Assembly (NCBI GenBank): GCA_050014495.1
Contig: JBEKDF010000005.1
Location: 1 to 64,000, forward strand
DNA: 64,000 nt
Origin: Candidatus Bathyarchaeia archaeon
Lineage (GTDB): Archaea > Thermoproteota > Bathyarchaeia > TCS64
Direction of reading: 5' to 3'
Part shown: positions 42,560-43,385 of the stretch, one piece after another
Layout: each line of letters opens with the position of its first letter
Position numbering within the stretch: the first letter of the stretch is position 1
Notes under the pieces: generated by a model
What the model saw: the letters and a program-made list of their open reading frames with translations, nothing else
Database searches by the model: none
What the model was told of the DNA's origin: nothing
Made by a program: the position numbers and the translations under genes

Positions 42560-42774
42560 CCTACGGCTCCTATCCCTGATATACTGAGGAGTGTTATTAG
42601 AAGAGTATACCCCGTAGGCTTTCTCATCGGGTATCTGAGGATCATTCTAAACATCTTAGAAGGTGTTCTATGGGGTAACTCATGTAAATCTCTGGGTGGC
42701 GTCTTCTATAGTGGTAATAGTTCTCCTTGATCAAGTTTGGAGAAGTTTCTGGCTCCGTGCGAAGCTAGCACGCG

Positions 42775-42787
42775 GAATGTTTATGTG
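42775..42787 (+). promoter_or_regulatory. Putative BRE/TATA promoter for queT
   Basis: GAATG-TTTATGT; standard archaeal spacing would put the transcription start near 42808-42812. Confidence 0.5.
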
Positions 42788-42808
42788 TTCAGGATATTTT
42801 CCTTTCCT

Positions 42809-42872
42809 CTTGGCGGGTGAGTGGGGCCTCCCACCCGATTCCGCCAGATAAACCCCGGTGAAGGGAGGCATG
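42809..42872 (+). ncRNA. Structured 5' leader of queT; candidate riboswitch
   Basis: Two alternative folds; GCCTCCC 42826-32 is complementary to GGGAGGC 42863-69 next to the ATG. Confidence 0.55.
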
Positions 42873-43385
42873 AAAGTCAAAGAGATTAGCCTAGCTGCCA
42901 TTCTGGCAGCGTTATATGCAACACTAGTCGTGGTTCTTGCGCCAATTAGCTATGGTCCTATCCAGTTGAGGGTTGCGGATTGTCTTATTCCACTCTCAGC
43001 TCTCCTGGGTTGGCCAGCTGCCGTGGGGGTTTCCCTTGGCGCGCTTGTGGGCAACTTCTATTATTTTTTGGGTCCTGTCGACGTGGTCTTTGGTGCTTTA
43101 GCTAACTTGTTAGCTGGTTTATTGATTTGGAGGTTGAGAAAAAGGCTGCTTATGGGGTGCGTGCTAGCATCGCTTGTCATAGGTGTGATTGTTGGTGGAT
43201 ATTTGTGGACATTTTTCCCACCTCCCGATGTGCTCGGCCTAACTCTTCCTGTGTGGCTCGCCATGATCGTAAGCATCTCACTAAGTAGTCTAATCTCAGT
43301 AACGGTAATCGGTTACGGGTTGGTCCGCGGACTCGAGGCCTCAGGGCTTAAAAAACTACTAGAGTCTCGGGGCATAATTGTGTAG
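42870..43385 (+). CDS. queT: QueT-family queuosine/7-deazaguanine precursor transporter (ECF S-component)
   Basis: A.LAALY..L...LAPISYGPIQLRVA..L, G.SLG..V.N, GP.DVVFG..A.L. Confidence 0.85.
   Translation: MKVKEISLAAILAALYATLVVVLAPISYGPIQLRVADCLIPLSALLGWPAAVGVSLGALVGNFYYFLGPVDVVFGALANLLAGLLIWRLRKRLLMGCVLASLVIGVIVGGYLWTFFPPPDVLGLTLPVWLAMIVSISLSSLISVTVIGYGLVRGLEASGLKKLLESRGIIV

Follow-up and report, generated by a model that had tools for sequence, protein, structure and literature searches.

A conserved archaeal leader RNA upstream of preQ0 import and synthesis genes, a candidate translational riboswitch for a 7-deazaguanine base

The leader of a queT gene from a Candidatus Bathyarchaeia archaeon is, judged by comparison of homologous loci, a conserved archaeal cis-acting RNA element that precedes genes of preQ0 import or synthesis and is predicted to be able to pair over the Shine-Dalgarno (SD) sequence. 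We propose that it would act as a riboswitch turning translation OFF in response to a 7-deazaguanine base, with preQ0 as the likeliest ligand, a reading to which we give a probability of roughly two in three. The element was found in a window of 64,000 nucleotides (contig JBEKDF010000005.1, positions 1 to 64,000). It is a real, widespread and apparently undescribed riboswitch candidate of archaea, for which the sequence comparisons support a corrected structure. According to passages of PMC5372724, preQ0 is the archaeal route to archaeosine and QueT is a predicted ECF S component, its substrate being likewise predicted.

In the mechanism that we propose, transcription would start near 42810, and helix P1 would form first and persist. 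In the ligand-free RNA, 42819-25 would pair with 42830-36 to give a long hairpin, in which the 3' part of the anti-SD is tied up and the SD is free (ON). In the ligand-bound RNA, 42856-69 would displace the G-rich strand and pair with 42826-37; both SD-like elements, beside the AUG, would be buried in the resulting H-type pseudoknot (OFF). The pocket would be built from the invariant unpaired nucleotides G42817, U42818, U42840, A42850-52 and C42854-55 at the P1/P2 junction. Synthesis of the importer, or of QueE, QueC or FolE, would then stop when the archaeosine precursor is plentiful.

Leader, promoter and occurrence of the element

The sequence of 42775..42872 was checked against the segments quoted in the first-pass annotation of this DNA, and all of them (UGGCGG/CCGCCA, GUGGG/CCCAC, CGGGU/ACCCG, GCCUCCC/GGGAGGC and GGUGAA) were present where they had been placed. 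The features of the locus are collected in Table 1. The open reading frame that follows the leader was identified as QueT (PF06177, 93.6 bits, cut-off 33.7, E 1.7e-26); its neighbours are a divergent HisJ-family PHP gene and, next downstream, a DUF998 gene. An in-frame GTG at 42858 and a 62-aa open reading frame at 42663-42851 were set aside, being not evidently kept in relatives when these were compared by eye.

Table 1. Coordinates of the queT locus and of the segments of its leader
Feature	Position	Strand	Remarks
TATA-like box TTTATGT	42780..42786	+	Predicted archaeal promoter; purine-rich BRE-like stretch immediately 5'
Leader element	42810-42869	+	~58-60 nt; copies elsewhere 50-65 nt
P1 5' strand GGCGG	42812..42816	+	Pairs with 42841-45; common to both predicted states
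G-rich strand GUGAGUGGG	42817..42825	+	OFF: loop 1 (predicted pseudoknot); ON: partner of 42830-36 (predicted long hairpin)
C-rich strand GCCUCCC-AC-CCG	42826..42837	+	Anti-SD 42826-32; P2b 5' strand 42835-37; predicted partner-swapping strand
Loop 2 (A)UU	42838..42840	+	U42840 invariant, candidate pocket nucleotide
P1 3' strand CCGCC	42841..42845	+	Assigned from pair counts
Loop 3	42846..42855	+	4 variable nt, then near-invariant AAA 42850-52 and CC 42854-55
3' strand CGG-UGAA-GGGAGGC	42856..42869	+	P2b partner, spacer, SD-bearing strand
queT	42870..43385	+	171 aa; ATG at 42870; predicted ECF-type 7-deazaguanine transporter S component

The TATA-like box, from which the first-pass annotation had predicted a transcription start, lies at -32 relative to P1, and its spacing recurs in the homologous copies: 139 of 180 have a TATA-like 8-mer whose first position is 29-37 nt ahead of P1, and the A+T content peaks at 0.88 at position -29. 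We infer from the sequence that transcription starts near 42810, the motif beginning approximately at the start site.

QueT homologs were detected in 190 of the 251 genomes of the class. We have examined 70 queT loci, made up of the best 30 and of 40 of the next-ranked QueT matches. The element stood directly upstream of queT in 59 of them, 57 recognised by pattern and two (L006 and L046) by the covariance model R1, and its flanks were unrelated among these homologous loci. A lack of conservation in related genomes had been named beforehand as an outcome that would speak against the proposal; what the 70 loci revealed was conservation in 59. At two further loci the element heads a queT-queC-queT operon. 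The other nine lacked it, and none was found in the wider regions of six of those nine. In four loci without the element (L022, L023, L025 and L027), a tRNA-like sequence was seen by eye directly upstream of queT.

A scan of GTDB with a pattern of the 3' half returned 120 stretches from 16 of the 64 parts of the database, which corresponds to an estimated ~490 in GTDB. The 5' half, absent from the query pattern, was also contained in 112 of the 120 stretches; the remaining eight were rejected as bacterial chance matches to the 3' half. By the titles of their records, the copies belong mostly to Bathyarchaeia, and also to Nitrososphaerota, Methanomethylicota and Asgard archaea. Searches with the model detected the element in 26/150 genomes of the host's own phylum, in 10/121 genomes of the phylum of an Asgard-titled genome and in 16/150 genomes of the class of a Nitrososphaerota-titled one; a phylum search around the genome of locus L167 gave 19/101, largely a re-sampling of the Thermoproteota set. 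For Euryarchaeota, DPANN and Bacillota, the coverage came from the pattern scan of the 16 GTDB parts alone. With a loose 3'-half pattern, IMG/VR yielded 120 viral loci, none of which had the 5' half. Three loci with the full motif come from records with bacterial titles (L151 and L159) or titled Methanocella (L167). Archaeosine TGT scored over the cut-off in their genomes, and the labels look wrong.

Downstream genes and the candidate ligand

The genes that follow the 112 copies were QueT-like in 96 cases (86 by BLAST and 10 by Pfam, one of these under the cut-off), QueE-like in five, QueC in one and an ECF-S-like membrane protein in four, with six left without assignment. The five QueE-like radical SAM genes had QueE models as their best matches, all under the cut-offs, and the single QueC gene scored over its cut-off. 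One genome (G507) contains three copies, preceding queE-queC, queE-folE and queT-queC. The element is consistently tied in this manner to one metabolic pathway through non-homologous genes, namely queT, queE-like, queC, folE and ECF-S-like genes.

The host genome has one other copy only, on contig C51, upstream of queT-queC. This copy (L192:1031-1492) precedes a QueT of a different subfamily, the first codons of which seem out of frame, and an intact queC follows; the frame break is possibly a frameshift or an assembly error. In the four loci with the ECF-S-like protein (L105, L114, L115 and L126), the first open reading frame encodes a membrane protein of 230-280 aa without a Pfam or NCBIfam match, which language-model features (ESM Atlas) described as ECF S-component-like with a score of 0.95. 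We regard it as a candidate for a new family of deazaguanine importers; at L105 it is followed by a queC-like gene. Two genomes without detectable queD or queE carry the operon queT(type 2)-queC-queT(type 1) (L194:2417-4101 and L195:2039-3725), where the two QueT proteins may differ in substrate, one taking up CDG for use by QueC and the other taking up preQ0. At L133 and L143, the gene after queE starts with a glutamine-amidotransferase-like domain (weak Pfam matches, at L143), which suggests GAT-QueC.

Five motif-bearing genomes were searched for the enzymes of the pathway. Archaeosine TGT was over the cut-off in 5/5 and full-length QueC was present in 3/5; QueF and QueD/PTPS were found in 0/5 each, and the QueE query gave weak generic matches only. 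Such genomes look like those of organisms that salvage the precursor. With QueF missing, preQ1 is unlikely to be the signal in the cell, and the presence of TGT in all five together with the lack of QueF and QueD points to preQ0.

Conserved pseudoknots with invariant loop bases over the SD are also typical of protein-bound leaders, and ribosomal-protein leaders offer a precedent for a different reading, in which the element would be the binding site of a protein (QueC, archaeosine TGT or an unknown regulator, for instance) that stabilises the SD-burying pseudoknot. We consider this unlikely. The genes led by the element are transporters and metabolic enzymes, both copies of the host genome lie away from the tgt locus, and full-length QueC was absent from two of the five motif-bearing genomes tested. 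Moreover, the motif is almost unchanged over two phyla and several operon layouts.

The RNA could also be a riboswitch for a ligand outside the deazaguanine series, such as guanine, GTP, SAM or another purine. QueE uses SAM and FolE uses GTP, the predicted layout P1-L1-P2a-P2b resembles SAM-II, and the specificity cytosine that precedes the P1 3' strand in preQ1-I is a U here. The supply of preQ0 is nevertheless the thread common to every assigned downstream gene, with no purine salvage or methionine gene behind the 112 copies, and the element did not match the Rfam purine and SAM families, which makes such a ligand quite improbable.

Pair counts and alternative folds

We have counted pairs on 100 diverse copies of the 174 distinct motif sequences, using an alignment (A2) built with a model that knew P1 only. 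P1 (42812-16/42841-45) was 98% paired, and three of its five pairs showed double changes, in 29 double-change cells. The anti-SD/SD helix was 89.7% paired in the same copies and its variants included a C-G/U-A swap, CCACC/GGUGG, UUUCC/GGAAG and an insertion of one base that is matched between the two strands, part of the double-change count of this helix coming from the matched register shift and not from point changes. The inner helix of the ON state (GUGGG/CCCAC, 42821-25/42830-34) was 91.5% paired. Pairing of all three helices exceeded the shuffled and slid controls. The anti-SD/SD helix and the inner hairpin with which it is mutually exclusive are both conserved. P2b (CCG 42835-37/CGG 42856-58) was 99.3% paired with zero double changes, and was broken in L396. 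One-sided wobble changes (G-U and U-G) were frequent, a pattern expected of RNA.

A tree-aware null (home-made and R-scape-like, 150 simulations) was then applied to the column pairs. Only the outer P1 pair was significant alone (E about 0). The G-C/C-G swap in P1 amounted to one event (E about 0.9), and the SD-helix pairs and U42822-A42833 were singly not significant (E 8 to 75); eight of the top 20 among the 1540 column pairs fell in predicted helices. The covariation check on homologs that had been suggested at the outset gave compensatory changes in three helices, with one pair alone passing the tree-aware null.

The SD-free fold of the first-pass annotation, P1 with the inner helix, held up: it is the ViennaRNA minimum-energy structure, and both helices show compensatory changes. 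Its SD-burying fold was right in part. All the segments of that fold are complementary in the 42810-42869 sequence, but two of its three helices fail in relatives. The anti-SD/SD helix was retained on its compensatory changes. The hairpin CGGGU 42814-18/ACCCG 42833-37 had to be dropped, as it displayed no double change and had one pair broken in 12/100 copies, at the place where P1 has 10 G-C to C-G swaps; so had the inserted stem UUCCGCC/GGUGAA, which was 62% paired. Since CGGGU/ACCCG is unsupported, P1 need not melt, and P1 together with the long 42826-37/42856-69 helix represents the OFF state better. The double demand on the C-rich strand, which would serve two partners, would explain that C42835 and C42836 change only to U.

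The unpaired positions were similarly constant in alignment A2. U42840 was U in 100/100 aligned copies, the AAA columns of loop 3 were A in 99-100/100 and its CC columns were C in 100/100; loop 2 was UU in 187/199, and CA replaces the loop 3 CC in a locus added later (L378). A short loop 1 goes together with a 2-nt 3' spacer, which accompanied 19/19 short forms versus 3/172 long forms, a count in which L062 was wrongly classed as long-form and from which eight unclassified rows were dropped (one bacterial chance match and one mis-anchored among them). The mis-anchored L179 was left out of the variant and SD-energy counts, and L127, of incomplete sequence, out of the model check of the GTDB stretches.

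The 16S tail of the host genome ends AUCACCUCCU (contig C45), and the 3' strand 42856-69 contains two SD-like elements, GGUGA 42857-61 and GGAGG 42864-68. In most copies 7-9 nt separate GGAGG from the start codon, against only 1 nt from the AUG here, which makes GGUGA, 8 nt away, the likelier working SD in this lineage. Of the 173 copies with a long frame, 164 had their start codon no more than 14 nt from the SD block. By a heuristic assignment that has no genome baseline, 111 of the 164 assigned starts were non-AUG (TTG and GTG, also ACG, ATA and CTG), and such starts would make translation SD-dependent. The SD helix was kept in L223 and L224 while the SD sequence was lost. All of L223-L226 have an altered SD strand (GGAAG, GGAAA, GGUGG) and a partner strand that has changed to match. 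In these four loci and in L232 and L233, a frame opens right after the motif and adds an extension of 30-55 aa before the usual QueT start.

Taken as a whole, the leader had a folding energy within the range of chance (z -0.38 for 71 nt and z -1.20 for 63 nt); for 42810-48 it gave a z of -2.87. Leaving any pseudoknot penalty aside, the SD duplex was computed to be ~5 kcal/mol stronger than the inner helix of the ON state (mean -5.0, sd 2.2, n=181). As a rough sign, these modelled energies may be those of a poised switch with its states near balance.

The greater strength of the SD duplex would also suit one fixed fold, with G42821-C42834 and U42822-A42833 inside a nested double pseudoknot, that damps translation constitutively or in a temperature-dependent way. 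U42822-A42833 was a standard pair in 185/191 classified copies, with swaps in several lineages. The unambiguous ones were to C-G (L134, L361, L376, L181 and L377), A-U (L092, L125 and L236-238) and G-C (L133 and L222); the G-C calls for L225, L226 and L235, which lie in runs of G and C, were left out. This pair is geometrically compatible with P2a and P2b, and it is better kept than the pairing of A42833 with the 3' strand (A-U in 103/130). A plain damper, however, would not be expected to have invariant unpaired bases and a strict tie to a single pathway, and G42823 and G42824 are still complementary to C42831 and C42832 in a manner exclusive with SD pairing. We hold a single fixed fold to be very improbable; under the riboswitch reading, the nested fold could be the ligand-bound state. 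That the leader instead serves a transcription factor as its DNA operator, just 3' of the promoter, as the fixed TATA distance and the inverted repeat of P1 might suggest, has almost no likelihood beside the strand-specific RNA features, i.e. the compensatory and G-U changes, the distant matched insertions and the SD pairing.

Novelty and comparison with known RNA classes

Rfam 15 gave no match at the element, with E up to 10 in the window and up to 5 in 13 diverse loci. The judgement by eye of the first-pass annotation that the leader matches none of preQ1-I, -II and -III was thereby confirmed with covariance models, and its suggestion of a new archaeal class has gained in support, the leader being conserved, placed on 7-deazaguanine genes and without an Rfam match. 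In the mostly open-access full-text literature that we searched, we found no archaeal queT or preQ0 riboswitch. We see a slightly better than even chance that the element represents an archaea-only class, the first sensor selective for preQ0 (or CDG), with an H-type pseudoknot, a new pocket and strand displacement on the C-rich strand, in several hundred genomes of Thermoproteota and Asgard archaea.

If this is true, the element would be a widely used kind of metabolite-sensing RNA control in the lineage nearest to eukaryotes. [quoted passage not shown] The sensing of 7-deazaguanines would gain a fourth, independent fold, one that is probably tuned to preQ0. The element also provides a handle on archaeosine salvage, in that it singles out two QueT subfamilies and the ECF-S-like family as candidate importers of the precursor and draws attention to archaea with TGT and QueC but without detectable QueD or QueE. 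With an RNA of ~60 nt and named candidate ligands, the claim is cheap to test.

The layout of SAM-II and SAM-V, an H-type pseudoknot with a long interrupted P2 that includes the SD, resembles that of the element. The element differs from them in having no Rfam match, a loop 1 that is G-rich and not U-rich, and deazaguanine instead of methionine genes as partners. The nearest archaeal precedent, of different sequence, is sRk28 of Pyrococcus abyssi. According to passages of PMC3124441, sRk28 is conserved, has a putative pseudoknot and is located next to a QueC-like gene, and the authors of that study compared it to preQ1 riboswitches; it is a Thermococcales RNA without an upstream promoter, and it lies beside an ATPase with a QueC-like domain. 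We have rejected it as the same element, as its aligned sequence in the PMC3124441 supplement is, by eye, without the conserved blocks of the present motif.

Among the preQ1 classes, whose features are taken from passages of PMC11625349 and PMC11602147, preQ1-I is, like the element, a small H-type pseudoknot; its P1 has 5 bp, its loop 3 contains adenines, its P2 takes in the SD and its partners are que genes (PMC11625349). The near-invariant loop 3 AAA of our predicted H-type pseudoknot corresponds to this description. Class I switches bind their ligand at the P1/P2 junction, where the invariant unpaired bases of the element also gather. PMC11625349 gives preQ1-I a cytosine (UC or AC) before the P1 3' strand, which is U in 100/100 copies here, and a fixed G-C closing pair of P1 as the pocket floor, which here is G-C in 88 and C-G in 10 of 100. 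The element is further distinguished by its long G-rich loop 1, a P2 of about 9-12 bp, its conserved alternative hairpin and its archaeal hosts.

PreQ1-II (RF01054, the COG4708/queT motif) likewise lies upstream of queT, and its anti-SD helix buries the SD fully (passages of PMC11625349). It is confined to Bacillota and, as in class III, a floor of U-A-U triples lies under its ligand (the gamma pocket; PMC11625349), whereas the element is archaeal and has no conserved U-rich or A-rich paired strands. The closer analogy to preQ1-II that had been drawn for the leader, in the HLout layout of an anti-SD-loop hairpin plus an inserted P4, was not supported by the pair counts. PreQ1-III (RF02680) is found upstream of queT as well and uses an anti-SD/SD helix as its expression platform, with ~100 nt, five helices and U-A-U triples (passages of PMC11625349), in contrast to the ~58 nt of the element and its lack of a triple strand. 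On these comparisons of sequence and predicted fold, the element falls outside each of the preQ1 classes, yet it would act as the translational preQ1 riboswitches do.
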